From assembly GCA_029261675.1 (NCBI GenBank), contig JAJDBA010000173.1:1-48151 (forward strand): a stretch of DNA of 48,151 bases, in the 5' to 3' direction. The stretch is from Nitrospinaceae bacterium (GTDB lineage: Bacteria; Nitrospinota; Nitrospinia; Nitrospinales; VA-1). Of this stretch, positions 14,905 through 45,873 are shown piece after piece. Below the pieces are notes generated by a model. That model was not told the DNA's origin and ran no database searches. It saw only the letters and a list, made by a program, of their open reading frames with translations. Within the stretch, counting starts at the first letter, position 1; every line of letters begins with the position of its first letter. The position numbers and the translations under genes are program-made.

Positions 14905-15282
14905 GTGGCAAATATTGTAATCATTGATGACTCTAATTTTCAGCGGAAAATTATAACAAAATTTGTTAAAGCCGAAGGTCATGAAATCTTTGAAGGCGCG
15001 AATGGAAAGATTGGCTTGGAGCTAATCGCAACTCATAAGCCAGATGCTATTTTATGCGATTTGGTGATGCCCGAAGTGGATGGTTTTGAAGTACTGCGTA
15101 AATTACAAGAGCAGGGCTCAAATATTCCAGTCATCATTCTTACTGCTGATATTCAAGCACCAGTACGCGAGCAATGTATGCAATTAGGTGCAAAAAAATT
15201 CCTGAACAAACCCTTCAATCAAAGCCAGATGCGAGAGGCTTTAAATGAGATTTTAGGGACTGTAGCAGAGGATTCCCAATGA
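14905..15282 (+). CDS. CheY-like single-domain response regulator
   Basis: 125 aa. 'IVIIDDS', 'ILCDLVMPEVDGFEVL', 'VIILTAD', 'KFLNKPF'. GTG start 5-6 nt after GGGGAG. Stop overlaps the next gene (ATGA). Confidence 0.9.
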   Translation: MANIVIIDDSNFQRKIITKFVKAEGHEIFEGANGKIGLELIATHKPDAILCDLVMPEVDGFEVLRKLQEQGSNIPVIILTADIQAPVREQCMQLGAKKFLNKPFNQSQMREALNEILGTVAEDSQ

Positions 15283-15893
15283 AATTGACAGATAACCAAC
15301 TTGATGCCCTTGCTGAACTTTTTAATATTGGAGTAGGCAAGGGTGCAGATAATTTGAATCAGATGCTGGATTGTCAAATTCAGATCCGAGTACCACATCT
15401 TGAAGTCTTATCTTTAAATGGGTTAAAAGAACAATCGCAAAAGCTTGCACCTAAAAATGTTTCAACAATCAGTTTGCAATTCGATGGATCTATTTCCGGT
15501 AATACAATGTTGGCTTTCCCGACTCAAAGCGCCCAAAAACTGGTTGCAGCTTTGACAGGAGAAGAACCCGGTTCCCCTGAACTAGACTCTGTTACTGTGG
15601 ATACCCTATCGGAAGTTGGAAATATTATTGTTAACTCGGTTATGGGCTCTATTACTAATTTCTTTAAACAGCGTCTAGACTATTCTGTTCCGAACTATGC
15701 TGAAGATACGGTTCATAATCTAATATCCTCGCATGTAAAGGAGTCAAACTACCCAATCATTATGGCGAAAGCCGAATTTTCGATAGAAAACTTGGAGATT
15801 CAAGGTGAAATCATTCTGGTTTTTAGTGTGGGTTCTCTTGAAGTTTTAATCGAAGCCATTGAAAATTTTGGAAGTAGTTCGGAGGAAGATTAA
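15279..15893 (+). CDS. cheC: CheC-family CheY-P phosphatase
   Basis: Two exact copies of the CheC active-site pattern D-x3-E-x2-N-x22-P: 'DALAELFN' + 22 residues + P, and 'DTLSEVGN' + 22 residues + P. Confidence 0.88.
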   Translation: MKLTDNQLDALAELFNIGVGKGADNLNQMLDCQIQIRVPHLEVLSLNGLKEQSQKLAPKNVSTISLQFDGSISGNTMLAFPTQSAQKLVAALTGEEPGSPELDSVTVDTLSEVGNIIVNSVMGSITNFFKQRLDYSVPNYAEDTVHNLISSHVKESNYPIIMAKAEFSIENLEIQGEIILVFSVGSLEVLIEAIENFGSSSEED

Positions 15894-21680: not shown

Positions 21681-22994
21681 GTGATGACAGGTAAAAAAGA
21701 ACGCGGTCTTTGGGAGCTTTATGCTAAGGATCCAGAAAAGGCGGATGCTGAAATTTGGGAAAGAAAACCCAATCCTTTATCCAGAAGAGGATTTTTAAAG
21801 AAAACGGGACTGGTCACCATGGCTCTGACCCTTGGCTCACAAATCCCTTTCTTTCGTAATATGCCGGGTGGATTTATTCCGCTGGCTCTAGCCGAAACGA
21901 ACGATAAAAAAATCATTGAAGGGAAAGAGGGATTGATTGTCTTAAACGATCGACCCGTCAATGCGGAACCCCCCGCCCATTTATTGGATGACGAATTCAC
22001 CCCCAAGGAAAAACATTTCGTTAGAAATAATGGCCTTCCTCCAGAAGGAAAAATTGATGCTAATCAATGGAAGTTTTCGATCGAGGGAGAAGTCCATAAA
22101 CCTTTTCAGTTAAGCTTGGAAGACCTGAAAAGTAAATTCAAGCATCATACCTATGCGCTACAGATAGAGTGCGGTGGAAATGGAAGGGCAGGGTACAATC
22201 CACCCGCAAAAGGCAACCAATGGAAATTCGGAGCGGTGGGTTGTGCTAAATACAAGGGCGTCCGACTGGGTGATGTATTGAAAGCCGCGGAGCTTAAGGA
22301 CTCTGCTGTATATACTGGCTATTACGGTGCTGATCTTCATCTTTCTGGAAACCCAGATAAAGCATCTATTTCACGCGGGACACCCATTACTAAAGCATTA
22401 GATGACCAGACTCTGATCGTTTGGGAGATGAACGGAGAGCCTCTTCCCGCTTTACACGGTTTCCCATTAAGAATAATAAGTCCTGGCTGGCCTGCCTCAG
22501 CTTCACCAAAATGGTTAAAGAGAATATGGGTTCGAGATCGAATCCACGATGGCATGAAAATGAATAAGTACAGAGTTCCAAAATATCCGGTGAAGCCAGG
22601 CGCATCTGTTCCCATGGAAGATATGGCTATCATCGAATCCATGCCGGTAAAATCTTTAATCACGAATCCGGAAACTGGGATTAAAATCAAACTTGGGAAC
22701 AAGCTTGATATCAGAGGTCATGCGTGGGCGGGTGACCTATCTGTTCAGGCACTTCATGTTTCTATAGACTTTGGGCAAACTTGGCAAAAGGCAGACCTTA
22801 AAGATCCATTGAATCCCTATGCCTGGCAGAATTGGAATGCAACGCTTCAATTTCCTAGTCAAGGTTATTATGAAGTTTGGGCAAGGGCTACCGATAGCGC
22901 GGGAGTTATGCAACCTATGGTTGTCCCAGGATGGAACCCTTCTGGTTATATAAATAACGCAATGCATCGAATCGCAGTTACCGTCAGTCAGTAG
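21681..22994 (+). CDS. Sulfite-oxidase-family molybdopterin oxidoreductase (SorA-like), Tat-exported
   Basis: Twin-arginine leader 'SRRGFLKKTGLVTMAL'. Mo-ligand Cys context 'LQIECGGNGR'; 'GFPLRIISPGW'. C-terminal Ig-like dimerisation region. ATG 21684 after AGAGG is probably the true start. Confidence 0.82.
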   Translation: MMTGKKERGLWELYAKDPEKADAEIWERKPNPLSRRGFLKKTGLVTMALTLGSQIPFFRNMPGGFIPLALAETNDKKIIEGKEGLIVLNDRPVNAEPPAHLLDDEFTPKEKHFVRNNGLPPEGKIDANQWKFSIEGEVHKPFQLSLEDLKSKFKHHTYALQIECGGNGRAGYNPPAKGNQWKFGAVGCAKYKGVRLGDVLKAAELKDSAVYTGYYGADLHLSGNPDKASISRGTPITKALDDQTLIVWEMNGEPLPALHGFPLRIISPGWPASASPKWLKRIWVRDRIHDGMKMNKYRVPKYPVKPGASVPMEDMAIIESMPVKSLITNPETGIKIKLGNKLDIRGHAWAGDLSVQALHVSIDFGQTWQKADLKDPLNPYAWQNWNATLQFPSQGYYEVWARATDSAGVMQPMVVPGWNPSGYINNAMHRIAVTVSQ

Positions 22995-22999
22995 GGGCC

Positions 23000-23383
23000 A
23001 TGGTAAAATTAGAAAGATTAGGGAAATATTGGCTCATCCAGTGCATGGTGGTAATTTTTTTGACATCCAACCTTGAAGCACAAGAGGAGATTGATTATCA
23101 GGGCCTGCCGCCGGGTGAGGGAATTGAGCTTGTGTTAGAGAACTGCACCGTTTGCCATTCGACAGACATCATTCTACAAAATCATATGAGTCGCGAAGCT
23201 TGGGATAAGACGATTACTTGGATGCAAAAAAAACAGGGATTGTGGGAACTGGGTAAAAAGGATCGAAAAACAATATTGGACTATCTTTCAAAAGCACAGG
23301 GAAGGATTATTAATAAAGCGAAACCGAATGGGACAAAAGGCAATCTCATGTACGAATTCGATTACAGGCCAAATCCTTTATAA
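23000..23383 (+). CDS. Monohaem c-type cytochrome (SorB-like electron acceptor)
   Basis: 127 aa. Signal-like N-terminus, single 'CTVCHS' (CXXCH) motif. Starts 5 nt after the SorA-like stop. Confidence 0.75.
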   Translation: MVKLERLGKYWLIQCMVVIFLTSNLEAQEEIDYQGLPPGEGIELVLENCTVCHSTDIILQNHMSREAWDKTITWMQKKQGLWELGKKDRKTILDYLSKAQGRIINKAKPNGTKGNLMYEFDYRPNPL

Positions 23384-23605: not shown

Positions 23606-24979
23606 GTGGTTACTCAAAATAAAATTCTACAAGGCAAAATTTTAATCGTTGATGACGAGCCGAATAACGTTGCCTTACTTGAGCAGACTTTGCAGGGGGT
23701 GGGGTATTCCTCTTTACGAAGCACTATGGATCCGCGCGAGGTCTGTGGTATTTTTGAGGAGTTCAAGCCTGATCTTATTTTGCTGGATATGAATATGCCA
23801 CATATGGACGGCTTCCAGGTCATGCAGAAACTAAAAAAAATTGACCCCAACTCTTCCGCTTCCATTTTAGTTTTGACTGCCCTCCAAGAAAGTGAAACCC
23901 GATGGCGAGCATTGCAAGCCGGAGCCCAGGAGTTTCTGACAAAACCTATTGATCTCGCGGAGGTGATTTGCCGTATTCAAATTATGTTGGAAATAAGGAA
24001 GCTCCGTTTAGAAATTGCCACTACAGAGAAAGAAGAATTTCCGGTTGTAGGGAAGTCGCCAGCTATAGTTCGCCTGAAAGAAGTTATTCATACGCTGGCT
24101 AATTGCAGTGCGGATGTTTTGCTTCTCGGTGAAACAGGTACCGGGAAAGACTTGGTCGCACGGTGTCTGCATGATTTAAGTGATAGGAAAGAAAAGAATT
24201 TTGTCGCTATAAATTGTGGCGCCATACCTGAAACTATTATTGAAAGTGAACTCTTTGGGCATGAAGCAGGTGCTTTTACCGGAGCCAATTCACGCCGTAT
24301 CGGCAAATTTGAATATGCTGACGGAGGCACCGTGTTTCTAGATGAAATAGAAAGCATGCCTATCGACTTACAGGTAAAGCTTCTGCGGGTTATTCAGGAG
24401 CGGACTGTGGAGAGAGTTGGTTCTAATCAGTCCATTCCCATTGATGTACGTATTATTGCTGCCACTAAAGTCGATTTAAAGGAAGCCAGCGACCAAGGAA
24501 AATTTCGTCAAGACCTCTACTACCGGCTGAATGTTGTGCAAATTATTCTTCCACCTCTTCGAGAACGTCAGGAAGACATCTCTCTTTTATTTCAGCATTT
24601 TGTTTTGCAAGCCTGTGCGAGACACAATCTACCGACTCCCATTTTGTCAAAGGGGTTAATGAGCCAGCTGAGCTCAAACAAATGGGAAGGTAATATTCGA
24701 GAGCTAAAAAATGAAGCAGAGAAGCATGTTCTGGGTATGGGGCTTGGACTTTCAGACCTGACTGCTGATTGCCAGGAAGCTCTTTCAAAAGATAAATCTA
24801 ATGAGTCCTCTTTTACACTTACCGAGCAGATGGATGTTTTTGAAAAGAAAATTTTGGAACAGGAACTACTTCGTCACGAGGGTAATATTAAAAACACCCA
24901 TGCCGCACTTGGTATTCCCAGACAAACTCTTGTTGATAAAATGAAAAAACATGGGTTTGATAAGAAGAATTTTCGCTAA
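23606..24979 (+). CDS. Sigma-54-dependent response regulator (NtrC family: REC, AAA+ sigma-54 interaction domain, Fis-type HTH)
   Basis: REC 'ILIVDDEPNN...LILLDMNMPHMDGFQV...VLTAL...FLTKP'. Walker A 'GETGTGKDLVA'; sigma-54 contact loop 'GAFTGA'; Walker B 'VFLDEIE'. C-terminal HTH 'GNIKNTHAALGIPRQTLVDKMKKHG'. Confidence 0.93.
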   Translation: MVTQNKILQGKILIVDDEPNNVALLEQTLQGVGYSSLRSTMDPREVCGIFEEFKPDLILLDMNMPHMDGFQVMQKLKKIDPNSSASILVLTALQESETRWRALQAGAQEFLTKPIDLAEVICRIQIMLEIRKLRLEIATTEKEEFPVVGKSPAIVRLKEVIHTLANCSADVLLLGETGTGKDLVARCLHDLSDRKEKNFVAINCGAIPETIIESELFGHEAGAFTGANSRRIGKFEYADGGTVFLDEIESMPIDLQVKLLRVIQERTVERVGSNQSIPIDVRIIAATKVDLKEASDQGKFRQDLYYRLNVVQIILPPLRERQEDISLLFQHFVLQACARHNLPTPILSKGLMSQLSSNKWEGNIRELKNEAEKHVLGMGLGLSDLTADCQEALSKDKSNESSFTLTEQMDVFEKKILEQELLRHEGNIKNTHAALGIPRQTLVDKMKKHGFDKKNFR

Positions 24980-25548: not shown

Positions 25549-27567
25549 ATGAACGCAATAAATACTCCATCACCAACCTCAAAATCCGGATTTTTCGGAT
25601 TATTTGGAAATGGTCATAATTCAGATACTTTAAAATCTGTCGGGGGGTCATTTTCAAGTCTGAACAAAGTCCAAGCAAATATTTTGGTCGCTGACGCTGA
25701 TTTCAAACTAATCTTTGCTAATGAAAATGCGGTAAAGACTCTTGGGATAATCAAGGAGCAAATTTATGCTGAGTTCGGTGTCTCAATAAATGACATGGTG
25801 GGTGGATCGATTCATCGCTTTCATAAAGACCCGGGTAGGATAGAAAGATTATTACGTAATCCATCAGCTTTGCCGCATACGGCAGAGTTTACTTTTGGTG
25901 ATGTGACTTTGGCAGCGACTATAAATTCGATTACCCATGCCAATGGAGTGGTTTCAGGGTATATCGTTAACTGGGAAGATGTCAGCCAAATCAATTTGAC
26001 AAAACTGGAAATGGAACGCATTCAATCCATGATGGAGAATGCTCCGGTCAATGTGATTTATTGTGATCCGGTAGACTTCAAGATCAACTATATCAACCCG
26101 GCTTCTGTTACAACTCTCAAGACGATCGAACAACACCTTCCCGTTGCTGTTGATAAACTAATGGGGCAATGCATTGATATTTTCCATAAGAACCCGGCAC
26201 ATCAGAGAAAGCTTCTTTCTAATCCTAGTAACCTTCCGCATAGAGCTCAAATTCAAGTAGGCCCCGAAATTCTCGATCTTCTGGTTACCGCTATTTATGA
26301 TAGCAACAAAACCTATCTTGGCCCCATGGTCACTTGGAATGTTATTACTGAAAAGTTGAGAATAGAAAATGATGTGGCGCGAGTCAATTCCATGATGGAA
26401 AACGCGCCAGTGAACGTTATTTTTGCGGACAAGGAAGAATTTAAAATCACCTATGTCAACCCGGCTTCCATTAAAACTCTCAAGACGATCGAAGAACATC
26501 TTCCCGTTGAGGTTGATAAATTAATGGGGCAATGTATTGACATCTTTCATAAGAACCCGGGACATCAGAGAAAGATATTAACCGATCCCAATAACTTACC
26601 GCACAGGGCAGAGATTCAAGTAGGCCCTGAAGTTCTTGATCTTTTGGTCAGTGCTATTTATGACAAAGACAAAAATTACTTGGGACCTATGGTGACATGG
26701 GAGTTGATAACTGAAAAGCTGGCAGCAGAAGAACGTGAGAGGAAGGCGAATGAGGCCGTAAAAACTATTCTGGAAAGTGTTTCAGAAAAAGCTCAAACAC
26801 TTGCCGGTGCCTCAGAGGAGCTGACTGCAACCAGTCAATTGATGGCGGGTAATGCAGAAGAAACATCCGCACAATCGAATGTCGTGTCTTCTGCATCAGA
26901 TCAGGTGAATCAGAATATCCAAACGGTTGCCGCTGGTTCTGAAGAGATGAGTGCCAGCATCAAGGAAATCGCCCAAAATGCCAATCAAGCCACTAAGGTG
27001 ACTGGTGATGCTGTGAAACTAGCCGAGACCACCAATCAGACGGTGACCAAGTTGGGCGCTAGCTCCGCTGAGATCGGTCAGGTAATCAAGGTTATTACTT
27101 CAATCGCAGAACAAACGAATCTTCTGGCGCTCAATGCAACTATTGAGGCGGCTCGAGCTGGTGAGGCGGGGAAGGGGTTTGCGGTGGTGGCGAATGAGGT
27201 TAAGGAACTCGCTAACCAAACGGCTAAAGCGACAGAAGATATCAGCAGTAAGATTCAGGCAATTCAAACGGATACTCAAAGTGCAGTAACCGCGATTGGA
27301 GAGATTGGCACGGTCATAGGCCAAATCAGCGATATCTCTAATACGATTGCCAGTGCTGTTGAAGAACAATCTGCGACTACCAGTGAGATCACCCGAAACG
27401 TTTCGGAAGCATCCAGAGGGTCTCAGGAGATTGCTGAAAATATCTCCGGGGTTGCTCAGGCAGCGCATAGCACAACTGAGGGAGCCAATGATACTCAAGT
27501 TGCTGCGAGCGAATTGTCCAAACTTGCAGCCGAGATGCAGAGCCTTGTTGATCAAGATAAACGTTAA
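25549..27567 (+). CDS. Soluble methyl-accepting chemotaxis protein with three tandem PAS units (Aer2-like, putatively haem-binding); no transmembrane or HAMP segment visible
   Basis: Signalling hairpin '[35 protein letters not shown]'. Three PAS units each carry 'FHK[DN]P' (His92, His213, His334) and a later 'V[NT]W'. No hydrophobic helix anywhere in the protein. Confidence 0.88.
26017..26742 (+). repeat. Tandem in-frame duplication (2 x 363 bp) encoding PAS units 2 and 3 of the MCP
   Basis: '[11 protein letters not shown]..' recurs exactly 363 nt (121 codons) later: TCC ATG ATG at 26026 and at 26389. The two units are roughly 80% identical in DNA by eye. An older, more diverged copy lies at about 25650-26016. 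Confidence 0.85.
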
Positions 27568-27657: not shown

Positions 27658-30270
27658 ATGGGTGACAGTGAAATGATTCAAGAGTTTGTGGCCGAATGCC
27701 GTGAGAATCTGGATCAATTTGATAAAGATTTGATCCGTCTTGAAAATGAGTCGAATTCCTCTGGTTTGATGGAAAGTATTTTTCGAACCATACATACAAT
27801 CAAGGGAAGTTGCGGATTGATTGGTTTTGTTAAACTCGAATCAATTACTCATGCTGGTGAAAATCTTCTTGGAAAAATCCAGCAAGATAAGGTGACTCCC
27901 TCTAGAGAAGTAATAGGTGTCTTGCAGAAACTTGCAGATTCAGTTCGCAGGATATGTACATGCATTTTAAACCAAGGAAATGAAGGGGATCAGGATTTTT
28001 CAGAATTGATTGTGAGCCTGGAACGTTTGCAGTCAGATGAGAACGAAAAAACCTCTTCAAATAATGGAAATGGTGCAAAGGCCGCATCTCTTTTTGAGAG
28101 AATCGGAGGTCAGGAGGCAATTGATGCGACCGTCAATGTTTTCTACACCAAAGTTCTCAATGATAGCCGAATCAATCATTTTTTTGAAAATACAGATTTG
28201 AATCATTTGTTTAATAAGCAAAAGGAATTCCTGACTCTCGCATTTGGGGGATCCAGTAACTATGATGGAAAAGGATTACGGGAAGTGCACAAGCATCTGG
28301 TGGAAAAGGGGCTCAACGAAAGCCATTTTGAGGCCGTCATCGAAAACCTTGGTGCGACTTTAAAGGAACTAAAAGTTCCAGATGAGTTGATCGAAGAAGC
28401 TGCCGGTGTAGCTCTTTCTGTAAAAAATGATGTTCTTAATCAAGCTCCCTCAGCGCCACCAAAAAAAGATGAGGTTCAAATAAATGAAGCAGTAGACATC
28501 TTGCCCGAAAATGGAAAACCAATTCCAGCTAATGAAAATGTTAAAAAGACCGCGACTACTGGAAAGAAAGAAGAACGTAAGCTGGAAGACTCGAGCATTC
28601 GTGTCGATGTGCAATTGTTGGATAAACTGATGAACCTGGTTGGAGAGTTGGTTTTAGCTAGAAATCAGATCATGCAGCTCAACGATACTCATCAAGACCC
28701 TACTTTCATGGAAACCTCTCAACATTTGAATTTAGTGACCTCTGATCTTCAGGAGGGAGTAATGAAAACCCGGATGCAGCCTATAGGCGGTATATGGGGT
28801 AAGTTTCCCAGAATTGTTCGCGATTTGTCGATGGAATGCGGCAAGAAAATTCGTCTTGAAACAGAAGGTAAAGAAACCGAGTTGGACAAAACTTTGATAG
28901 AGGCAATCAAAGATCCCTTGACGCATATCATTCGCAATTCAGTAGACCATGGAATAGAAAAACCTGATATTCGGATAGATCAAGGTAAACCTGAAGAAGG
29001 AACTTTAAATTTAAAAGCCTATCACGAGGGTGGGCAGGTCATTATTGAAATCACGGATGATGGTGGTGGAATCGATTCGTCAATTCTCAAGGAAAAGGCG
29101 TTGAGTAAAGGTCTAATCACAAATGAGCAGGCCTTGAAAATGAATGATCGAGAATCCGTTAATCTTATTTTCTTACCGGGACTTTCTACGGCCAAAAAAG
29201 TTACTAATGTATCGGGTCGTGGTGTCGGAATGGATGTTGTAAAAACCAATATAGAAAAAATTGGCGGAACTGTTGATATTAATACAACTAAGGGAGAAGG
29301 CACAACTCTGAAGGTCAAGATTCCTTTAACATTGGCAATCATTCCAGCCCTGATCGTTTCAACAGGCGCAAATCAGTATGCAATACCTCAGGTAAACCTG
29401 CTGGAGTTGGTTAGACTGGAAAAAGAACAATCTGAAAATAGCATCGAGTTGATTCAAGGAACCCCGGTATATCGTTTGCGAGGAAACCTTTTACCTATTG
29501 TTAGTTTGCACGATGAGCTTGGTGTTGCAAAAAATGATACAGATCAAACCGCAACTAATATTGTTGTTTTAAACGCGAATGGCAAGCAGTTTGGTCTGGT
29601 GGTTGAGGAAATTTGTGACTCAGAGGAAATCGTGGTGAAACCTCTTGGAAGTCAGTTGAAGGGAATCTCTGCCTTTTCGGGAGCAACGATCATGGGAGAC
29701 GGGAGGATAGCATTGATCCTCGACATAATGGGTCTTGCTCAAAAAGCACAAGTAATTCGTGAAAATCAGGAGACGAGTACGAAAGAAACGAGTGGCACAG
29801 ACCTTGAAAGCAGCCATGCTTCAAACAAAGAAACCTTGTTGATATTCAGAGTTGGAAAAGAAGGGCGAAGCTCTATTCCACTTTCTGCGGTGGCACGCTT
29901 AGAGGAATTTAAGAGTTCAGATATTGAGCGTTCAGGAAAGAATAAGGTCATTCAATATCGAGGCGAAATTATACCTCTTATTTGTCTTGAAGAGTTTTTC
30001 GATTCTTTCAAAGAGATAGAGCAAAAGGAAGCAATTCAGGCTGTTATTTTTACCCAGAAAAATAAAAGTGTGGCTCTTGTAGTCGATAAAATTCTTGATA
30101 TTGTCGAAGAAAACATTTTGGTAAAACGCACGTTCTCTCGGGCGGGAATTTTGGGAACAGTGGTTGTTCAAGATAAAGTTACGGACTTGATAGATATGGA
30201 AGGTGTTGTTCGAAAAATGGACCCCACATTTTTTGAAGATTGTGAAGAGGTTTTGAGTTTGAATCATTAG
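27658..30270 (+). CDS. cheA: CheA histidine kinase with a truncated-haemoglobin domain in place of P2 and two CheW-like domains (Hpt, trHb, dimerisation, HATPase_c, CheW-like x2)
   Basis: P1 'FRTIHTIKGS' (His46); globin 'LFERIGGQEAIDATVNVFYTKVL...' at aa 144-261; P3 'IRVDVQLLDKLMNLVGELVLARNQ'. P4 'DPLTHIIRNSVDHGIE', 'DDGGGID', 'GRGVGMDVVKTNIE'. P5 'NQYAIPQVNLLELVRL...'; second CheW-like 'ETLLIFRVGKEGRSSIPLSAVARLEEF...'. Confidence 0.92.
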   Translation: MGDSEMIQEFVAECRENLDQFDKDLIRLENESNSSGLMESIFRTIHTIKGSCGLIGFVKLESITHAGENLLGKIQQDKVTPSREVIGVLQKLADSVRRICTCILNQGNEGDQDFSELIVSLERLQSDENEKTSSNNGNGAKAASLFERIGGQEAIDATVNVFYTKVLNDSRINHFFENTDLNHLFNKQKEFLTLAFGGSSNYDGKGLREVHKHLVEKGLNESHFEAVIENLGATLKELKVPDELIEEAAGVALSVKNDVLNQAPSAPPKKDEVQINEAVDILPENGKPIPANENVKKTATTGKKEERKLEDSSIRVDVQLLDKLMNLVGELVLARNQIMQLNDTHQDPTFMETSQHLNLVTSDLQEGVMKTRMQPIGGIWGKFPRIVRDLSMECGKKIRLETEGKETELDKTLIEAIKDPLTHIIRNSVDHGIEKPDIRIDQGKPEEGTLNLKAYHEGGQVIIEITDDGGGIDSSILKEKALSKGLITNEQALKMNDRESVNLIFLPGLSTAKKVTNVSGRGVGMDVVKTNIEKIGGTVDINTTKGEGTTLKVKIPLTLAIIPALIVSTGANQYAIPQVNLLELVRLEKEQSENSIELIQGTPVYRLRGNLLPIVSLHDELGVAKNDTDQTATNIVVLNANGKQFGLVVEEICDSEEIVVKPLGSQLKGISAFSGATIMGDGRIALILDIMGLAQKAQVIRENQETSTKETSGTDLESSHASNKETLLIFRVGKEGRSSIPLSAVARLEEFKSSDIERSGKNKVIQYRGEIIPLICLEEFFDSFKEIEQKEAIQAVIFTQKNKSVALVVDKILDIVEENILVKRTFSRAGILGTVVVQDKVTDLIDMEGVVRKMDPTFFEDCEEVLSLNH
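28087..28440 (+). other. Truncated haemoglobin (group I/trHbN-like, 2-on-2 globin) domain embedded in CheA
   Basis: Aligns without gaps, from 'IGG' to the proximal His, with my recollection of Mycobacterium tuberculosis HbN. Tyr-B10 (TAC 28144-28146), Gln-E11 (CAA 28219-28221) and His-F8 (CAC 28288-28290, 'REVHKH') are conserved. Confidence 0.8.
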
Positions 30271-30305: not shown

Positions 30306-30734
30306 ATGAGTGATGAAAAACAGTTTTGCACATTTTATCTTGGGGATAGGTTCTTTGGTGTAGAGGTGGAGCGAGTGCAGGAAGTTTTTAGATACCAAGA
30401 AATGACACAAGTTCCACTGGCGCCTTCTGTCGTGCGAGGATTGATCAATCTCAGGGGACAGATCATTACAGCCATTGATTTGAGACGTAGGCTTGGCATG
30501 AAGGAGATTTCCGAGGACCAAAACCCCATGAATATTGTCGTCAGAACCGATGATGATGTGGTGAGTCTGCTGGTGGACCGAATCGGGGATGTTTTGGAAG
30601 TAGGTGACGAAGTTCTGGAGCCCCCGCCTGAAACACTAGATGAAATAGCGCGAAAATTGATTCCAGGAGTTTATAAGCTCAACGGCTCTCTGCTGTTAAC
30701 TCTAGATACAGAAAAAACATTGGATTTTTCCTAA
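30306..30734 (+). CDS. cheW: CheW coupling protein
   Basis: 142 aa. 'FCTFYLGDRFFGVEVERVQEV', 'VRGLINLRGQIITAIDLRRRLG', 'LVDRIGDVLEV'. Confidence 0.9.
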   Translation: MSDEKQFCTFYLGDRFFGVEVERVQEVFRYQEMTQVPLAPSVVRGLINLRGQIITAIDLRRRLGMKEISEDQNPMNIVVRTDDDVVSLLVDRIGDVLEVGDEVLEPPPETLDEIARKLIPGVYKLNGSLLLTLDTEKTLDFS

Positions 30735-30962: not shown

Positions 30963-31034
30963 AGAACCATCCAATTTTGGATCTTCAATATTGCAAGTGA
31001 TTGAAAAATAATGCTTATTTTTGTTTGTGAATTT

Positions 31035-31050
31035 TGGCAGGCATATTGCT
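31035..31050 (+). promoter_or_regulatory. Sigma-54 (-24/-12) promoter 2
   Basis: TGGCAG-gcata-TTGCt. It lies inside the TTG-initiated extension of the ORF-track entry 31021..32625 and 55 nt upstream of ATG 31105. Confidence 0.75.
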
Positions 31051-31104
31051 TTAGTAAAGTTAGTGCCGTTCATAAAAAATGTTTTCTTTGAAGGAGAAGT
31101 GGAA

Positions 31105-32625
31105 ATGAATGCAATATCGTATCAAAAAGAAACACAAACTGTGCTTCGTCTATTGATGGTTGAAGAATCGACGGAAGATGCTTTATTGCTGGCCTGTGCG
31201 CTTCGAGATGGGGGTTACCAGCCTCAATGCGAAAGAGTAGAAACAGAAGATGCGATGATTTTAGCCTTGAAAAAACAAGAGTGGGATTTGGTGATTTCGG
31301 ATTCTAGGACGACTCTATTTGATGGGTTGGAAGCTATATCAACCCTAAAAAGTCATGGAGCGAATATTCCCATCATTATCGTTTCAAGCTCTGTTGATAT
31401 GTTTTCTAAGGAGAAATTGATTAAAGCCGGTGCAAGTGAATTTGTTTTAAAAGATAAACTATCAAGTCTTATTCCTATCCTAGAAAAAATACTCCCCAAG
31501 ACGAAAGAAAACCCCAAGGCAGACCTAAAACCCAAGCAAATAGATTCAAAACCGAATGACCTAAGCGAAACTAGCGATGTAGAGCTTCTGAATGCGAAAA
31601 TTTTAATTGTGGACGATGAACCTAAAAATGTTGAAGTTATCAAACAGGTTATGGAGATGGCAGGGTATGAAAATATTCGTTTCACCTGTGACCCGAGAGA
31701 AGTTTGCGATATTTATAAAATTTTCTGGCCCGACCTGGTTTTGTTGGATTTGAACATGCCTCATATGAATGGATTTCAGGTTATGGAAGAACTTAAAAAA
31801 GTGGAGCAAAGAGACTATCTTCCGGTATTAGTTCTGACTGCTCAAACCGATAGAGAGTCTCGTTTGAAAGCCCTGCGGGCGGGGGCCAAGGATTTTTTAC
31901 TGAAACCTTTTGATCTTGTTGAGGTGATACATCGGATACAAAATATACTGGAAGTTCGACTGATCCAAAATAAGCTTAGACATCAGAATTTTAATCTTGA
32001 AGAAAAAGTTCAGGAGCGTACGAAGGAGTTATATAAAACTCAACTATCCGTAGTCCAACGGTTGGGGCGCGCAGCGGAGTATCGCGATAATGAGACCGGT
32101 AATCACGTTCTACGAATGAGTAAGGTTGCTGCTTTACTGGCAAAACATATGGGTTTTGACGAAAAACAATGCGACCTGATTCTGAATGCTGCACCCATGC
32201 ACGATGTAGGGAAAATTGGCATCCCAGACGGGATTCTACTGAAACCGGGAAAACATGATTTAGAGGAATGGGGCGTCATGAGAACCCATGCTGAAATTGG
32301 CTATCATATTCTCGCTGATGATCCATCGGAATTAATGCAGTTGGCCGCCAAGATTGCCTTGGAACACCATGAAAAGTGGGATGGGTCGGGGTATCCCAAA
32401 GGGTTAAAGGGAGAGGAAATTTCTATCGAGGCAAGGATTACTACGGTAAGCGATGTGTTTGATGCGTTGACCTCCGAAAGACCCTACAAAAGAGCATGGC
32501 CAGTTGAGGATGCTATCAAATATATTGAAGATCAAAAAGGAATCTCTTTCGATCCTCAAATTGTGGAAAAGTTCAAAAATGTTGTGCCAGATATTATTCG
32601 TATTAAAGATCAATTTGTCGATTAG
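31105..32625 (+). CDS. Dual-receiver HD-GYP response regulator (REC, REC, HD-GYP; RpfG-type putative c-di-GMP phosphodiesterase)
   Basis: Start moved to ATG 31105 (GGAG 9 nt upstream), because the upstream extension contains the sigma-54 promoter. REC1 'LLMVEES...LVISD...IIIVSSS'. REC2 'ILIVDDEPKN...LLDLNMPHMNGFQV...VLTAQ...FLLKP'. HD 'APMHDVGKIG'; 'HHEKWDGSGYP'. Confidence 0.9.
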   Translation: MNAISYQKETQTVLRLLMVEESTEDALLLACALRDGGYQPQCERVETEDAMILALKKQEWDLVISDSRTTLFDGLEAISTLKSHGANIPIIIVSSSVDMFSKEKLIKAGASEFVLKDKLSSLIPILEKILPKTKENPKADLKPKQIDSKPNDLSETSDVELLNAKILIVDDEPKNVEVIKQVMEMAGYENIRFTCDPREVCDIYKIFWPDLVLLDLNMPHMNGFQVMEELKKVEQRDYLPVLVLTAQTDRESRLKALRAGAKDFLLKPFDLVEVIHRIQNILEVRLIQNKLRHQNFNLEEKVQERTKELYKTQLSVVQRLGRAAEYRDNETGNHVLRMSKVAALLAKHMGFDEKQCDLILNAAPMHDVGKIGIPDGILLKPGKHDLEEWGVMRTHAEIGYHILADDPSELMQLAAKIALEHHEKWDGSGYPKGLKGEEISIEARITTVSDVFDALTSERPYKRAWPVEDAIKYIEDQKGISFDPQIVEKFKNVVPDIIRIKDQFVD

Positions 32626-33926: not shown

Positions 33927-36572
33927 ATGTACCTTTTTATGTTTGATACCGCTTTCACAGGAAATGAGGTAACGGGCTCTTATAACCTGTGGCTTGTTTT
34001 TTTCTCTTACGTAGTTGCTTCTTTCGCTTCTTTTACGGCTTTTGACTTAGCTATTCGAATCAAAGAAAGCCATGGAACTACCCGAAATGTCTGGATTGGT
34101 GGATGCGCCTTAACTATGGGCGGAGGAATCTGGTCTATGCATTTTACCGCCATGCTAGCCTTAAAGATTCCCCTATCCATCACCTATGACTTAGGGACTA
34201 CCCTTTTCTCATTTATTATTGCTGTCGCTGTTTCTGGTATTGGGTTTTTCCAAGTTTACTCCGGGAAAACCGTTTTAATCGCCAATATCATCAAGGGTGG
34301 AGTGCTGATGGGATGCGGGGTGATAGGGATGCATTATACCGGAATGGCAGCAATGGAGTTATCTGGGACGATGCATTACAAGCCCGGTTTGTTTATTCTT
34401 TCATCGTTGATTGCAATTTTAGCCGCTATTGTTGCAATGGGTTTGACCACTCATTTCGGCAATAAAGAAGGAGCTAGGTTTTCACTAAAAGTTATTGCTT
34501 CATTGGTAATGGGTATGGCTGTTTTTGGTATGCATTATACCGGAATGGCTGCAACCGTTTTTACTGTTCCACAAAATTTTATTCCTCCCTTACAGATTAC
34601 TTCAGATTTCGACATGCTGGCATTCGGAATTTCTCTAGTAACACTTTTTATAATGGGTATGGCATTGCTCGTCTCCATAACGCAAAGAGAGATTCAAAGG
34701 CTTGTGGAAGCAAAGTCACAACTTGAAAACCGAATCAGTGCGTTACCAAAATTTCCTGAGAAAAACCCGTTTCCCGTTCTCCAAATAGACAAATCTGGAG
34801 TCATCGTTTATGTCAATTTCGCAGCGGAGAAAGCGTTGGCTAATTGGAATTGTAAGCTGTTAGATACGATTCCTGATGTTTTCAAAAATACTATTAAAGA
34901 CACGTTTGATTTTCAGGAGTCGAATCCTTTGGAAATTGACATTGGTCAACAAAAATATGTTTTTGATGCGGTTTACAATAAAGACCAAGACAGGGTCAAC
35001 ATGTATGGAAATTATAGTTTAGATTCAAAATCAACGAGTCAGGCTTTACACATAGAGCGTCAGAACTTTTTCGATATGTTAGATAACCTGCCCATTTGTT
35101 TTCATTTGCAGGCACCAGATTATTCTGTCCCTTACGCTAATAAAATGTTCCGTGAACGGTTTGGTGATCCTGAGGACAGAAAATGTTTTGATTTGATGTA
35201 TAGAAGAGACGAGCCTTGTGAAGTTTGTTCCCCTTTCAAAGTATTTGATAATAAGGAAAAACAGGCCAGTGTTTGGAGCTCAATGGATGGATATACCTAT
35301 TTGACGGTATGCACCCCTTTTAAGGGGTCGGATGGAAAAGATTTGGTGATGGAAATGGCTATGGATATTACCGATCAGGAAAATGCCAAGAAGGAAGCCC
35401 TCAGTGCAAAAGAAGAAGCTGAAATGGCTAACTATTCCAAATCCGAATTTTTGGCGAGAATGAGTCACGAATTACGCACTCCTATGAACGCTATCCTGGG
35501 TTTCACACAGCTTTTGCAGATAGATCAAAGGAATCCTTTAGCCGAATACCAAAAGGAAAACATGGAGAGGGTATCTTCAGCAGGGAAGCATCTTTTGAAT
35601 CTCATCAATGAAGTGCTCGATCTTTCTACAGTTGAATCTGGGAAATTGGATTTAACAATAGAAACGCTGGATATAGTTCCTATTGTTGATAATGTATTTT
35701 CTATTTCACAGGCACTTGCTAATGAGAAAAATATATCTCTAAAGTATGCAGGGCTTCCGCAAGAGGGTTATTTTGTTGATATAGATGCTCTGAGGTTCAA
35801 GCAAGCTGTCTTGAACCTGATCTCCAATGCAATCAAATACAATAAACCTAATGGTTCTGTAATTATTTCCTATGAAAAACTGAAGAATGGCAAAGTCCGG
35901 TTAGGAGTCCAGGATACGGGACATGGTATTGCCCAAGATAAGATAGATAAGCTCTTCCAACCCTTTGAGCGTTTTGATGTGGATGTAGAACAAATTGAGG
36001 GCACTGGCATTGGACTGACTATTTCCAAAAAACTCATTGAATCTATGGGCGGAATTATAGGCTTTGAAAGTGTGATAGGGGAGGGCAGTTTTTTTTATAT
36101 TGACGTTCCAGTTTCAGATAAAAAACCTGCGTCTCTGGAGATTGAAATACCCGCAGATTCAATCTCTGCCTCCGTAGAAACAAACCTTAAAAAAACGGTT
36201 CTCTATATAGAAGATATTCCAGCCAATATAGTCTTGGTGAAGCAAATTTTGACGAGCAGATCTCATATAGAATTGTTATCGGCACCCAATGCTTTAGATG
36301 GCATCAAAATAGCCGAGACCCACATCCCTGATTTGATTTTAATGGATATTCATTTGCCAGGGATGGATGGCCTTACAGCTTTTAAAAAGCTTCAAGCTCT
36401 CAATGTAACTAAAGACATTCCGATTATTGCTTTGACAGCAGATGCGATGGATGGAGATATAAAAAGAGCTCTGGATATGGGATTCCATTCCTATACTACC
36501 AAGCCCATTGATGTGTCCAAATTTTTGAAGGTAATAGATGGTGTGTTAAATCAACAAGCAAAACTTATTTAA
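33927..36572 (+). CDS. MHYT-domain hybrid histidine kinase (MHYT membrane sensor, two PAS-like regions, HisKA, HATPase_c, REC; array member 2)
   Basis: Three MHYT-type helices: 'WSMHFTAMLAL', 'IGMHYTGMAAM', 'FGMHYTGMAAT'. Cys-rich PAS-like region 'CFDLMYRRDEPCEVCS'. H-box '[26 protein letters not shown]'. C-terminal REC '[11 protein letters not shown]...[13 protein letters not shown]...IIALTADAM...YTTKP'. Confidence 0.9.
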   Translation: MYLFMFDTAFTGNEVTGSYNLWLVFFSYVVASFASFTAFDLAIRIKESHGTTRNVWIGGCALTMGGGIWSMHFTAMLALKIPLSITYDLGTTLFSFIIAVAVSGIGFFQVYSGKTVLIANIIKGGVLMGCGVIGMHYTGMAAMELSGTMHYKPGLFILSSLIAILAAIVAMGLTTHFGNKEGARFSLKVIASLVMGMAVFGMHYTGMAATVFTVPQNFIPPLQITSDFDMLAFGISLVTLFIMGMALLVSITQREIQRLVEAKSQLENRISALPKFPEKNPFPVLQIDKSGVIVYVNFAAEKALANWNCKLLDTIPDVFKNTIKDTFDFQESNPLEIDIGQQKYVFDAVYNKDQDRVNMYGNYSLDSKSTSQALHIERQNFFDMLDNLPICFHLQAPDYSVPYANKMFRERFGDPEDRKCFDLMYRRDEPCEVCSPFKVFDNKEKQASVWSSMDGYTYLTVCTPFKGSDGKDLVMEMAMDITDQENAKKEALSAKEEAEMANYSKSEFLARMSHELRTPMNAILGFTQLLQIDQRNPLAEYQKENMERVSSAGKHLLNLINEVLDLSTVESGKLDLTIETLDIVPIVDNVFSISQALANEKNISLKYAGLPQEGYFVDIDALRFKQAVLNLISNAIKYNKPNGSVIISYEKLKNGKVRLGVQDTGHGIAQDKIDKLFQPFERFDVDVEQIEGTGIGLTISKKLIESMGGIIGFESVIGEGSFFYIDVPVSDKKPASLEIEIPADSISASVETNLKKTVLYIEDIPANIVLVKQILTSRSHIELLSAPNALDGIKIAETHIPDLILMDIHLPGMDGLTAFKKLQALNVTKDIPIIALTADAMDGDIKRALDMGFHSYTTKPIDVSKFLKVIDGVLNQQAKLI
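36276..36485 (+). repeat. Near-identical 210-bp receiver-module repeat, copy 1
   Basis: Hand alignment: 7 mismatches/210 nt against 41599-41808 and 14/210 against 38339-38548, with no indels. Encodes '[70 protein letters not shown]'. Confidence 0.9.
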
Positions 36573-43762: not shown

Positions 43763-43896
43763 TCCCAGCGCTACTATGAAGTAGAGCACTTTTTTATGTC
43801 TTAGCATTTAGGATTTCAATAGAAAGTCCTGATTTTTGAATAATACCCTTTCAAATATTTTGTTTGCCAAGTTTCTGGCAGGGAGTGAACCACCCC

Positions 43897-45873
43897 ATGT
43901 TTAAAAATATTTATATACCTGTAGACAATTCTGATTATTCCAATGCTTGCGTAGACGTAGCAATGGAATTAGCTCAGGATTCAGATGCCATTATTACTGC
44001 TAGCCATGTTTATGCGGCTAAGATGCATGATGTCCGTTTCCGACAAATGGAAAGTGGATTGCCTGAAGAATATCAGGATGAAGAAGAACTCGAAAAACAA
44101 AGAAACATTCATGACCAACTGATCACCAAAGGCATGGAAGTTATCAGCGATTCTTATTTGGATGTACCCAAAGATAAATGTAAAGAGAAGGGCATTCCTT
44201 TTGTGGGGAAATCCCTTGAAGGTCGCAACTGGACAGAGCTGGTACGAGATATTCAAGAGTCTCCCTACGATCTAGTTGTAATGGGTGCGTTAGGGCTAGG
44301 CGCTATTAAAGATAGCCTGATCGGCACTGTAGCAGAACGTGTAATAAGACGTACGAAAAAGGACATGCTGATTGTGAAACATTGTCCTGAAATTCATGAT
44401 GACGTTGCTTCAAGTGGAAAAATTGTAGTCGCAGTTGACGGAAGTGGTCAATCCTTTGGTGGTCTGATGACAGGGATTGATTTGGCGAGAAAGTTGAATC
44501 GCCCTCTGGAAATCATTTCGACATTTGATCCTTACTTTCATTATGCAATGTTCAACAGTCTGACCGGTGTATTGTCCCGTGAAGCTTCTAAAGTTTTTAA
44601 GTTTGAGCAACAGGAAAAACTTCATGAGGACATCATTGATAAAGGGTTGGCAAAAATTTATCAGGCTCATCTGGAGATTTCCCGGAAAGTTTGTGAAGAA
44701 GAAGAAATGGAATGTACCATTCGTCTTCTGGATGGAAAGGTTTTCGAAAAAGTTCTGCAATATGCTCGCGAAGAAAATCCTTATCTCCTCATTTTAGGAC
44801 GCATTGGTGTTCATAGCGCGCCTGATATGGATATTGGGGGTAATGCTGAGAACTTATTGCGACTCGTCCCTTGTAATGTCTTGCTTTCCAGTAAAGTTTT
44901 CAAGCCGCCTATAGATTTGCAGGCTGAAGAGAGCATTGAGTGGACTGCAGAAGCTAAAGAAAGATTGAAGAAGATTCCTGGCTTTGTACGCCCAATGGCG
45001 ACCTCCGCGATTCTGCGATATTCTTTAGAGCGCGGACACAGCATGATTACTTCTAGTGTTATCACTGAAGCCGTTCAGGAAATTCTTCCTGCGGGTGCTA
45101 TGCAGGCAATGTCTGCTATCGGCGAGAGAATGAAAAATGAGGGTATGGACCCCAACAATCCGGAAGGTCTCGGTATGTTGAAAGAAGAAATGGCCGAAGC
45201 TCATGCTGGTAAGCCCCCTGAAGAGATTACTCTGAAATGTACCAGTTGTAATACTTTCTATAAAGGGGATGTTGTCAAATGTACTGTTTGTAATGCAGGG
45301 GCAGAACGCTTGCTTCCTGTTAACAAGGAAGAGTTTGAGGCATCGGAAGCAGAGGCTAAGAATTCTACTACATTCACTACTTTGCCTGATGGTGTTCAAG
45401 TGTCTTGGACTCAGGAAGCTTTGGATCGTCTTAATAGTTTCCCACAAGGTCATTTGAGAAGAAAAGCCCATGCTCGTGTTGAAAAGAATGCTCGTGTGCA
45501 GAAAGTCAATAAGGTTACGGCTGCCTTCCTAGACAAAATTCTCAATGAAAAGATCGTCAAGGATAACGGCAATGGCAACGGGGCAAGCGAAGGTATTCCA
45601 GGGGATATTCTAAGCTTGGGAGCCTCTTTAGATGCGAAAGATTTCAACTGGTCACCTGAAGCTTTAGAACGGTTGGAGCGTGTTCCTAAAGGGTTTATGA
45701 GGGACAACACTCAAAACCGAGTGATGGCTTGGTGTTCTCAAAATGATATCAAAGATATTTCACTTGATGTCTGTGAAGAAGGAATCAGGGAGTCTGTGAA
45801 ACTGATGGAAGATGCCATTAAGAATGGCGCAGGCTTAGACGACTTCCTTCCTCAAAAAGAAGTAAAGGCATAA
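43897..45873 (+). CDS. Multidomain protein: two universal-stress-protein (USP) domains, a Cys4 zinc-ribbon-like motif and three PCP_red-like repeats
   Basis: USP 'IYIPVDNSDYS...VVMGALGLGAIKDSLIGTVAERVIRRTKKDMLIVK' and 'IVVAVDGSGQS...LILGRIGVHS...NVLLSS'. 'CTSCNTFYKGDVVKCTVCN'. Three repeats: 'WTAEAKERLKKIPGFVRPMA', 'WTQEALDRLNSFPQGHLRRKA', 'WSPEALERLERVPKGFMRDNT'. ATG 43897 after GGGAG is preferred over the track's TTG 43864. Confidence 0.8.
   Translation: MFKNIYIPVDNSDYSNACVDVAMELAQDSDAIITASHVYAAKMHDVRFRQMESGLPEEYQDEEELEKQRNIHDQLITKGMEVISDSYLDVPKDKCKEKGIPFVGKSLEGRNWTELVRDIQESPYDLVVMGALGLGAIKDSLIGTVAERVIRRTKKDMLIVKHCPEIHDDVASSGKIVVAVDGSGQSFGGLMTGIDLARKLNRPLEIISTFDPYFHYAMFNSLTGVLSREASKVFKFEQQEKLHEDIIDKGLAKIYQAHLEISRKVCEEEEMECTIRLLDGKVFEKVLQYAREENPYLLILGRIGVHSAPDMDIGGNAENLLRLVPCNVLLSSKVFKPPIDLQAEESIEWTAEAKERLKKIPGFVRPMATSAILRYSLERGHSMITSSVITEAVQEILPAGAMQAMSAIGERMKNEGMDPNNPEGLGMLKEEMAEAHAGKPPEEITLKCTSCNTFYKGDVVKCTVCNAGAERLLPVNKEEFEASEAEAKNSTTFTTLPDGVQVSWTQEALDRLNSFPQGHLRRKAHARVEKNARVQKVNKVTAAFLDKILNEKIVKDNGNGNGASEGIPGDILSLGASLDAKDFNWSPEALERLERVPKGFMRDNTQNRVMAWCSQNDIKDISLDVCEEGIRESVKLMEDAIKNGAGLDDFLPQKEVKA

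Follow-up and report, generated by a model that had tools for sequence, protein, structure and literature searches.

Can a haemoglobin be part of the chemosensory histidine kinase CheA, and what would it do there? The question is raised by a 48,151-nucleotide stretch of DNA from a Nitrospinaceae bacterium (assembly GCA_029261675.1, contig JAJDBA010000173.1, positions 1 to 48,151; hereafter the window), in which an 870-aa CheA is encoded by a single uninterrupted open reading frame (ORF) at 27658..30270 on the + strand. An earlier reading of the letters alone (the original prediction) had placed a truncated haemoglobin (trHb) of the 2-on-2 type in the slot of this protein where a P2 domain would be expected, and that architecture is backed here by profile hidden Markov models (HMMs), comparison with solved structures, a predicted fold and a set of homologues. 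As for its role, we give an even chance to the globin being a haem-based input or regulatory module, tethered to CheA in a pathway of the alternative-function type; it would thereby put gas sensing directly on the kinase, as the original prediction had inferred.

Pfam profiles were used to resolve the protein into its domains, which follow each other (all on the + strand) in the order Hpt, a 46-aa linker, an N-type truncated haemoglobin (trHbN), a 50-aa linker, P3, P4 and two CheW-like domains. The P1/Hpt domain (aa 5-97; 27670..27948; PF01627, E 2.6e-14) carries the phospho-accepting His46 (27793-27795), which is invariant across 36 homologues in the family alignment. The P3 dimerisation domain (H-kinase_dim, PF02895, E 4.2e-16) spans aa 312-371 (28591..28770), and the P4 kinase domain (HATPase_c, PF02518, E 5.6e-16) spans aa 419-558 (28912..29331). 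Two CheW-like domains had been claimed and two Pfam CheW stretches were found: the best of them (PF01584, E 1.9e-38) marks the first CheW-like domain, or P5 (aa 564-697; 29347..29748), and the other lies at about aa 724-860 (29827..30237), where AlphaFold 2 (AF2) modeled beta-structure over residues 724-845. A second CheW-like domain is shared by 81 of 85 related loci among the matches listed. All four core domains of CheA (Hpt, H-kinase_dim, HATPase_c and CheW-like) were matched at E <= 1e-14. The NCBIfam CheA models matched below their cutoffs, with 439 bits against 950 for the E. coli-type and 414 against 793 for the Halobacterium-type model, and by its domain content the protein is a CheA that is no equivalog of either type.

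The segment between Hpt and P3 that the original prediction had singled out, about 118 aa at 28087..28440, corresponds exactly to aa 144-261. It is matched by the bacterial globin profile (Bac_globin, PF01152) over aa 144-258, with E 4.8e-15 and 56.3 bits against a cutoff of 21, covering profile positions 1-118 of 121; no Protoglobin (PF11563) match was found by Pfam in the CheA protein. When the segment was compared with PDB sequences using phmmer, the best match was Synechocystis GlbN (E 1.8e-33, about 55% identity), and other matches included the Tetrahymena trHb (6e-31), Chlamydomonas LI637, THB1 and THB4, and Mycobacterium tuberculosis HbN (1idr; 1.2e-18). The group II protein HbO reached merely E 4e-3, so the nearest kin belong to group I and not to group II or III. 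Identity to solved trHbN structures was 35-55%, and in a collection of 5.8 billion proteins the globin was 58-68% identical to stand-alone metagenomic proteins of ~121 aa, the named ones being called "group 1 truncated hemoglobin". This globin-only query returned stand-alone trHbNs alone and zero fused CheAs, and it informs on identity, not on distribution. An AF2 model of aa 139-266 reached a per-residue confidence (pLDDT) of 88.2 and a pTM of 0.79, and Foldseek aligned it with 3aq5, 1dly, 1idr and 6cii at TMq 0.84-0.89, TMt up to 0.91 and a root mean square deviation of 1.4-1.9 A. Two of the computational checks proposed at the outset, profile search and structure prediction, therefore both returned a globin, neither a missing HMM match nor a non-globin fold being found, and the scores lie far outside what chance would give. 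Each checkable detail of the original observation held. By sequence and predicted fold, the inserted module is a 2-on-2 truncated haemoglobin of group I (N-type).

The residues that line the predicted pocket are Phe162 (B9), Tyr163 (B10; 28144-28146), Phe176 (CD1), Leu184 (E7), Lys187 (E10), Gln188 (E11; 28219-28221), a Phe at E14 and His211 (F8; 28288-28290), while the Gly-Gly hinge motifs of the AB and EF corners are formed by G150-G151 and G197-G198. Translation of the gene reproduced the numbering given earlier for His46 (in "HTIKGS"), Tyr163, Gln188 and His211. The gap-free alignment to M. tuberculosis HbN, reaching from IGG to His-F8, also holds, with 27 of 67 positions identical to the HbN sequence given there and a 3-residue gap only after F8. 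His117, through which GlbN is covalently linked to haem, is absent from the CheA globin, which has a 2-residue deletion there. The CheA globin very probably binds haem.

The architecture recurs well outside the window. Among the 120 best matches to full-length CheA, 42 carry a globin in the same place (50-92% overall identity), in NCBI, JGI, ENA and Logan assemblies of which some contigs measure 3.1-4.2 Mb. The named carriers among these best homologues are all Nitrospinota, Nitrospinaceae or Nitrospinales, and domain databases evidently label the fused CheAs with PF01152 already. Conservation was counted over 43 fused globins: Phe-CD1 is present in all 43, the Gly-Gly motif positions in 41-42, Leu-E7 in 40, Lys-E10 in 37 and His-F8 in 40 (replaced by Tyr in P0018 and by Val in P0088 and P0090). 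Tyr-B10 was found in 32 with Phe in the other 11, and E11 is occupied by Gln (28), Glu (6), Met (5), His (2), Lys (1) or Gly (1). Such variation between clades at B10 and E11 is the pattern that would be expected from tuning of ligand affinity. Selection was assessed per domain by comparing the window CheA with a single 90%-identical relative (L003), which gave dN/dS values of 0.082 for the globin, 0.076 for P3, 0.109 for P4, 0.059 for the first CheW-like domain and 0.18 for Hpt, with 0.17 and 0.23 for the first and second linkers. The globin is thus under strong purifying selection, on a par with the catalytic domains. When the kinase core was placed in a neighbour-joining tree (built without support values), globin-CheAs clustered with a few globin-less members interspersed, and two large globin-less clades stood apart; this is most simply read as an ancient gain of the globin within Nitrospinota and its occasional later loss.

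These data also dispose of the thought that the globin is an artefact, either a chimeric assembly or a captured gene fragment that is decaying without function, to which we assign a negligible probability. Apart from the fact that model organisms rarely show this architecture, nothing speaks for it, and it is refuted by recurrence of the fusion in homologues from dozens of independent assemblies (including contigs of 3-4 Mb) and by a dN/dS of 0.08, as well as contradicted by the uninterrupted ORF.

How is the module attached, and does it stand in for P2? As originally claimed, a P2/CheY-docking domain is absent: neither P2 (PF07194) nor the CheY-binding domain (PF09078) matched the 870-aa protein in Pfam at E <= 0.01, and the unassigned stretches (aa 98-143 and 262-311) leave no room for one, being too short and in part unstructured in the AF2 model. 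In the full-length model, linker 1 (aa 98-143; 27949..28086) forms a fifth helix at aa 115-125 and is disordered thereafter, and linker 2 (aa 262-311; 28441..28590) is rich in Pro, Lys and Glu and disordered (pLDDT 25-35). The model as a whole has a pLDDT of 67, with Hpt, the globin (about 78-85), P4 and the two CheW-like barrels well folded, no regular structure at aa 126-144 and 260-308, and pLDDT below 50 at 128-141 and 264-322. The globin is therefore predicted to sit as a bead on a string, like P2 in classical CheA. Since both linkers appear disordered, coupling would have to occur by reversible docking or steric tethering; a rigid signaling helix, as found in globin-coupled sensor (GCS) proteins, was considered and rejected on the same grounds.

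The shared position and tethering, together with the absence of P2 itself, raise the alternative that the globin fold is mainly a docking platform for one or more response regulators, with a structural or vestigial haem. Within this CheA family the P1-P3 interval is evolutionarily plastic: some members have a globin there, some an additional Hpt, some both of these, and some no module. The second Hpt of sister CheAs (an interaction or phosphotransfer module), like the empty slot of others, would agree with such a surrogate role, as would the three members that have lost His-F8. However, P2 is no core feature of CheA, and more than half of all CheAs function without it (PMC10782961), so no substitute is required. 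Moreover, conservation extends to the haem-pocket residues and is not confined to the surface, and identity to free trHbNs reaches 68%, which argues that haem chemistry has been retained. We consider a mere substitute for P2 quite improbable.

Rarer and more divergent globin-CheAs occur in Alphaproteobacteria, represented by P0303 (Rhodospirillales) and by L022 (5497-9147 of the metagenome-assembled genome (MAG) OZ240684.1), a 1216-aa CheA composed of Hpt, globin (30 bits), P3, P4, CheW, CheW and REC. The globin in the P2 slot of L022 is divergent, with a residue other than Tyr at B10 and His-F8 kept; a second globin-like insert splits its CheW region into three Pfam stretches, and the REC domain is C-terminal. 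Two further observations concern the same region of the family. A repeated motif, "DRR(S/T)G...E(E/A)(A/T)FLA...DRR.GGDRRSES", lies just before P3 in the globin-P3 linker of many fused CheAs (P0014, P0027, P0053, P0071, P0118 and others), and not in the window CheA. In a same-family CheA of a "delta proteobacterium" MAG (L013, 5614-7968), the P2 slot is filled by a helical segment of ~60 aa that has no Pfam match and reads "TIGEILVEAGEV...LGQILVSRGSV...". We take this segment to resemble a T2SSE_N/MshEN-type repeat, and it would be a further case of the slot hosting foreign modules.

Globins are also found on other components of homologous clusters. To sample the CheA family, one genome per species was scanned with a profile seed reaching from the globin to P3, which recovered at least 80 loci from many phyla; the patterns were drawn from the dimerisation domain, and the loci are a sample of the family, not a census of fusions. 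A search of proteins with the globin-to-P3 profile, whose ranking was led by di- and tri-globins and short fragments, added a few architectures and likewise is no census. The counts that follow hold among the matches listed. A cluster of CheA (with two CheW domains), CheW and a soluble methyl-accepting chemotaxis protein (MCP) is strongly conserved: in 60 of 85 loci the MCP signaling domains share 54-73% identity, and a stand-alone CheW follows CheA in 80 of 85. In six loci the MCP begins with an N-terminal Bac_globin followed by PAS repeats (L049 in Acidobacteriota, L012 in Gemmataceae, L051 and L073 in Gemmatimonadota, L074 in a "delta proteobacterium" MAG, and L067), and in L028 (Planctomycetota) a globin is located at the MCP C-terminus. 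The soluble MCP of the window (25549..27567, + strand) has three PAS-like repeats but lacks a globin, and its orthologues in other phyla are the globin-PAS-MCPs. It aligns with the L049 receptor at 49% identity (609 bits), and the alignment begins exactly after the L049 globin; a trHbN is thus carried by the receptor of this pathway in other phyla, and by its kinase in the window. An MCP-borne and a CheA-borne globin were never found in one locus among these matches.

Other attachments include a CheW-Bac_globin fusion (P0300, 293 aa) and a protein of an Hpt and two globins (P0260, 449 aa), and "multi-unit" trHbNs of two or three globins (P0244 and many others) are abundant and 60-65% identical to the window globin. 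The CheA-borne globin shares 33-40% identity with MCP-borne globins, in contrast to up to 70% with free trHbNs, and the fusions therefore look like independent captures; transfer of the CheA globin from a receptor was dropped as an explanation for this reason. The window MCP and those of L049, L012, L051, L073 and L074 share a His-rich motif, "G(Q/G)(C/S)ID(I/V)FHK(N/D)P.HQR..L..P.NLPH.A.I.VGPE", which occurs in three PAS-like repeats and is retained at about 50-60% identity across phyla. These PAS-like repeats could be a second, perhaps haem-based, sensor of the same pathway.

To which outputs might such a kinase be connected? Reading downstream, the window encodes, on the + strand, an NtrC-type sigma54-activating response regulator (23606..24979), the PAS-MCP, the globin-CheA, a stand-alone CheW (30306..30734; PF01584, E 2.3e-33) and a REC-REC-HD-GYP regulator (31021..32625; two Response_reg and HD_5/HD matches in Pfam). 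Four hybrid kinases (REC-HK, MHYT-PAS-HK-REC, GAF-HK-REC and dCache-PAS-GAF-HK-REC) come next. The translation of the REC-REC-HD-GYP gene contains "HDVGK" and "HHEKWDGSGYP" motifs, and its product is a predicted cyclic di-GMP (c-di-GMP) phosphodiesterase and a candidate phospho-acceptor of CheA. Twelve kb upstream of cheA, Pfam identified a single-REC, CheY-like protein (14905-15282) and a CheC/CheX phosphatase (15279-15893), together at 14905..15893 on the + strand and in the same synteny in L003; this pair may belong to the CheA pathway or to another. Neither CheB nor CheR is encoded within the 48-kb window, and at this locus CheA is not accompanied by the full set of CheB/CheR and CheY by which flagellar-type systems are recognized. 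The pathway looks like a chemosensory system of the "alternative cellular function" type. Given the absence of CheB/CheR and the nature of the neighbours (HD-GYP, NtrC-type activator and hybrid kinases), its output is likely the level of c-di-GMP and/or sigma54-dependent transcription, possibly besides motility. The REC-REC-HD-GYP regulator, encoded right after CheW, would be a candidate for a c-di-GMP output of the Wsp-like kind, although Wsp itself has a GGDEF cyclase and includes CheB/CheR homologues. Cultured Nitrospina have never been observed to be motile, yet their core genome contains flagellar and che genes (PMC5029188).

Comparison of nine gene contexts of fused CheAs showed an NtrC-type regulator immediately upstream in 7 of 9 and a REC-HD(-GYP) regulator nearby in 5 of 9, and among these nine an adjacent globin-less MCP was seen only in the window and in P0009, a member of the same clade. 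No MCP or CheW adjoins the globin-CheA in L003 (90% identity) or L001 (51% identity). Three blocks of the window are missing from the otherwise identical synteny of L003, having been inserted here or deleted there: a SorA-like molybdopterin oxidoreductase with a small cytochrome c (21681-23383), the PAS-MCP (25549-27567) and the CheW (30306-30734). In the same signaling island, one of the hybrid kinases (33927-36572) has three repeats of MHYT, a membrane domain for which a role in sensing O2, CO or NO has been proposed. Two other features of the window were noted. A UvrD/AddA-like helicase-nuclease is present on the - strand as two ORFs ~260 nt apart (N-terminal helicase part, 8072-9508; UvrD_C and PD-(D/E)XK, 6140-7810) that adjoin an AddB-like PD-(D/E)XK protein (9508-12156); the gene may be truly split, frameshifted or a pseudogene. 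An unusual 669-aa protein (43864-45873) combines universal stress protein (Usp) domains with two PCP_red repeats (protochlorophyllide reductase 57 kD subunit-like).

Taken as a regulatory module, the globin could act through its docking. A change in the ligation (by O2, NO or CO) or redox state (ferrous-oxy or ferric) of a bound haem would alter how the tethered globin docks onto, for instance, P1, P4 or the REC domain of a response regulator. The altered docking would gate phosphoryl flow from His46, whose recipients would be the NtrC-type activator, the HD-GYP phosphodiesterase or both, with CheY as a possible further one. An input role is favoured by the presence of the same module at the N-terminus of the cognate receptor elsewhere, by the finding that MCP and CheA never both carry it among the matches listed, by a distal pocket that varies by clade, and by strong purifying selection. 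The conserved globin in this slot suggests that CheA may itself sense O2, NO or redox state and need not be informed via receptors alone.

Several points weigh against an input role. The linkers are predicted to be flexible and offer no obvious allosteric path, and a tethered globin could act and leave CheA unregulated. Three members are devoid of His-F8, which implies that haem is not universally required, and one divergent member (L002) is located within a classical CheY-CheX-CheA-CheW-CheB cluster. Gene adjacency, in addition, is no proof that the HD-GYP and NtrC-type regulators are substrates of CheA. Finally, trHbNs with Tyr-B10 and Gln-E11, such as M. tuberculosis HbN, are NO dioxygenases (NODs) that release O2 very slowly, which makes them a poor fit to fast chemotactic sensing.

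The last point leads to a different function, in which the globin is an enzyme or buffer localised to the array: a NOD, an O2 scavenger or an O2 store that is anchored to the chemosensory complex and protects or conditions other sensors, for example the PAS repeats of the MCP, and leaves CheA unregulated. The Tyr-B10/Gln-E11/Leu-E7 pocket is the same as in M. tuberculosis HbN, a NOD, and closely related trHbNs, single or multi-unit, are plentiful. Attachment is promiscuous (MCP N- or C-terminus, CheW, or the P2 slot of CheA) and always made through flexible linkers, which suits a need to be nearby over an allosteric geometry; pocket and attachment points fit such an enzyme or buffer equally well. 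Conversely, no reductase partner is evident at the locus, NOD chemistry would be crippled by Phe-B10 in 11 of 43 globins and by Glu, Met or His at E11, and a globin in fixed ratio to a kinase of low abundance would be a poor bulk scavenger. Because its placement on either MCP or CheA is mutually exclusive among the matches listed, the globin also resembles a signaling component. We regard an array-bound enzyme or buffer as unlikely overall, and retain a haem-based input to CheA as our working interpretation.

If it senses, the globin-CheA would work like a GCS. In these proteins (the aerotaxis receptor HemAT, AfGcHK and EcDosC) a haem globin is covalently joined to an MCP, kinase or cyclase output, and HemAT feeds a CheA pathway. 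However, the GCS globin is a 3-on-3, S-family globin related to protoglobins, located N-terminally and followed by a helical linker, with HisKA-type kinases where the output is a kinase. The CheA globin, in contrast, is a 2-on-2, T-family globin placed internally between P1 and P3 with disordered linkers on both sides, and its kinase is CheA. By its sequence class and position, being neither S-family nor N-terminal, it falls outside the GCS family. The original prediction went too far in restricting known globins of chemotaxis to the 3-on-3 type, as receptors composed of Bac_globin, PAS and MCP exist in clusters homologous to that of the window and have been described in silico for Corallococcus coralloides Cc_4972 (PMC6194562). 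Receptors of the Cc_4972 type bring the same PF01152 family into a chemosensory pathway, with the globin on the receptor there and on the kinase here.

Similar distinctions apply to other known systems. The canonical five-domain CheA of E. coli and T. maritima shares P1, P3, P4, P5, the conserved His and a flexibly tethered module in the slot; its P2, however, is a cofactor-free alpha/beta domain that docks CheY, whereas here the slot holds a putative haem globin, P5 is duplicated and no CheB/CheR is nearby. The single-domain trHbs (GlbN, HbN, Chlamydomonas THB1 and the Tetrahymena trHb) have the same fold and pocket residues as free proteins of ~120 aa, with E10 being Lys in the CheA globin, THB1 and HbN and His in GlbN. 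Haem-based control of two-component or chemosensory signaling by gas or redox state is also known from FixL, DosS/DosT and Aer2, but these use haem-PAS or haem-GAF folds with the sensor N-terminal of the transmitter, and in none is it inside CheA.

According to a 2023 survey of CheA architectures, the kinase has no sensor domain, and the auxiliary domains recorded for it are limited to P2, REC and CheC/X; a globin is mentioned nowhere in the survey, be it text or supplements. A 2020 review of globins reports bacterial chimeric T globins for groups O and P only. Full-text literature searches, whose scope excluded the globin censuses Hade 2017 and Vinogradov 2013, returned no description of a trHb in CheA. 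The globin-CheA architecture is real and recurrent, and apparently undescribed.

A more far-reaching proposal can be made only tentatively, and we hold it to be rather doubtful as a whole: CheA, long deemed the one histidine kinase without an input domain, would hold its own haem-based gas or redox sensor; trHbs would have been recruited independently onto MCP, CheW and CheA; and in some Nitrospinota the fused protein, which includes two CheW domains and whose gene has no receptor gene beside it, would act in these marine nitrite oxidisers as a receptor-independent or receptor-parallel O2/NO-responsive kinase, steering c-di-GMP through HD-GYP as well as transcription that depends on sigma54. 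If it is a true sensor, a conserved haem globin inside CheA is a counter-example to the view of CheA as a sensorless kinase. It would let gas or redox signals enter a chemosensory array at its kinase and extend globin-coupled signaling from 3-on-3 sensor globins to 2-on-2 truncated haemoglobins. The natural variants (B10, E11, loss of His-F8, and globins on MCP, CheW or CheA) provide a ready-made mutational series. Nitrospinota are the main marine nitrite oxidisers and, according to the literature, are present in low-oxygen waters, and a direct link from O2 or NO to c-di-GMP or transcription, if true, would bear on their ecology.

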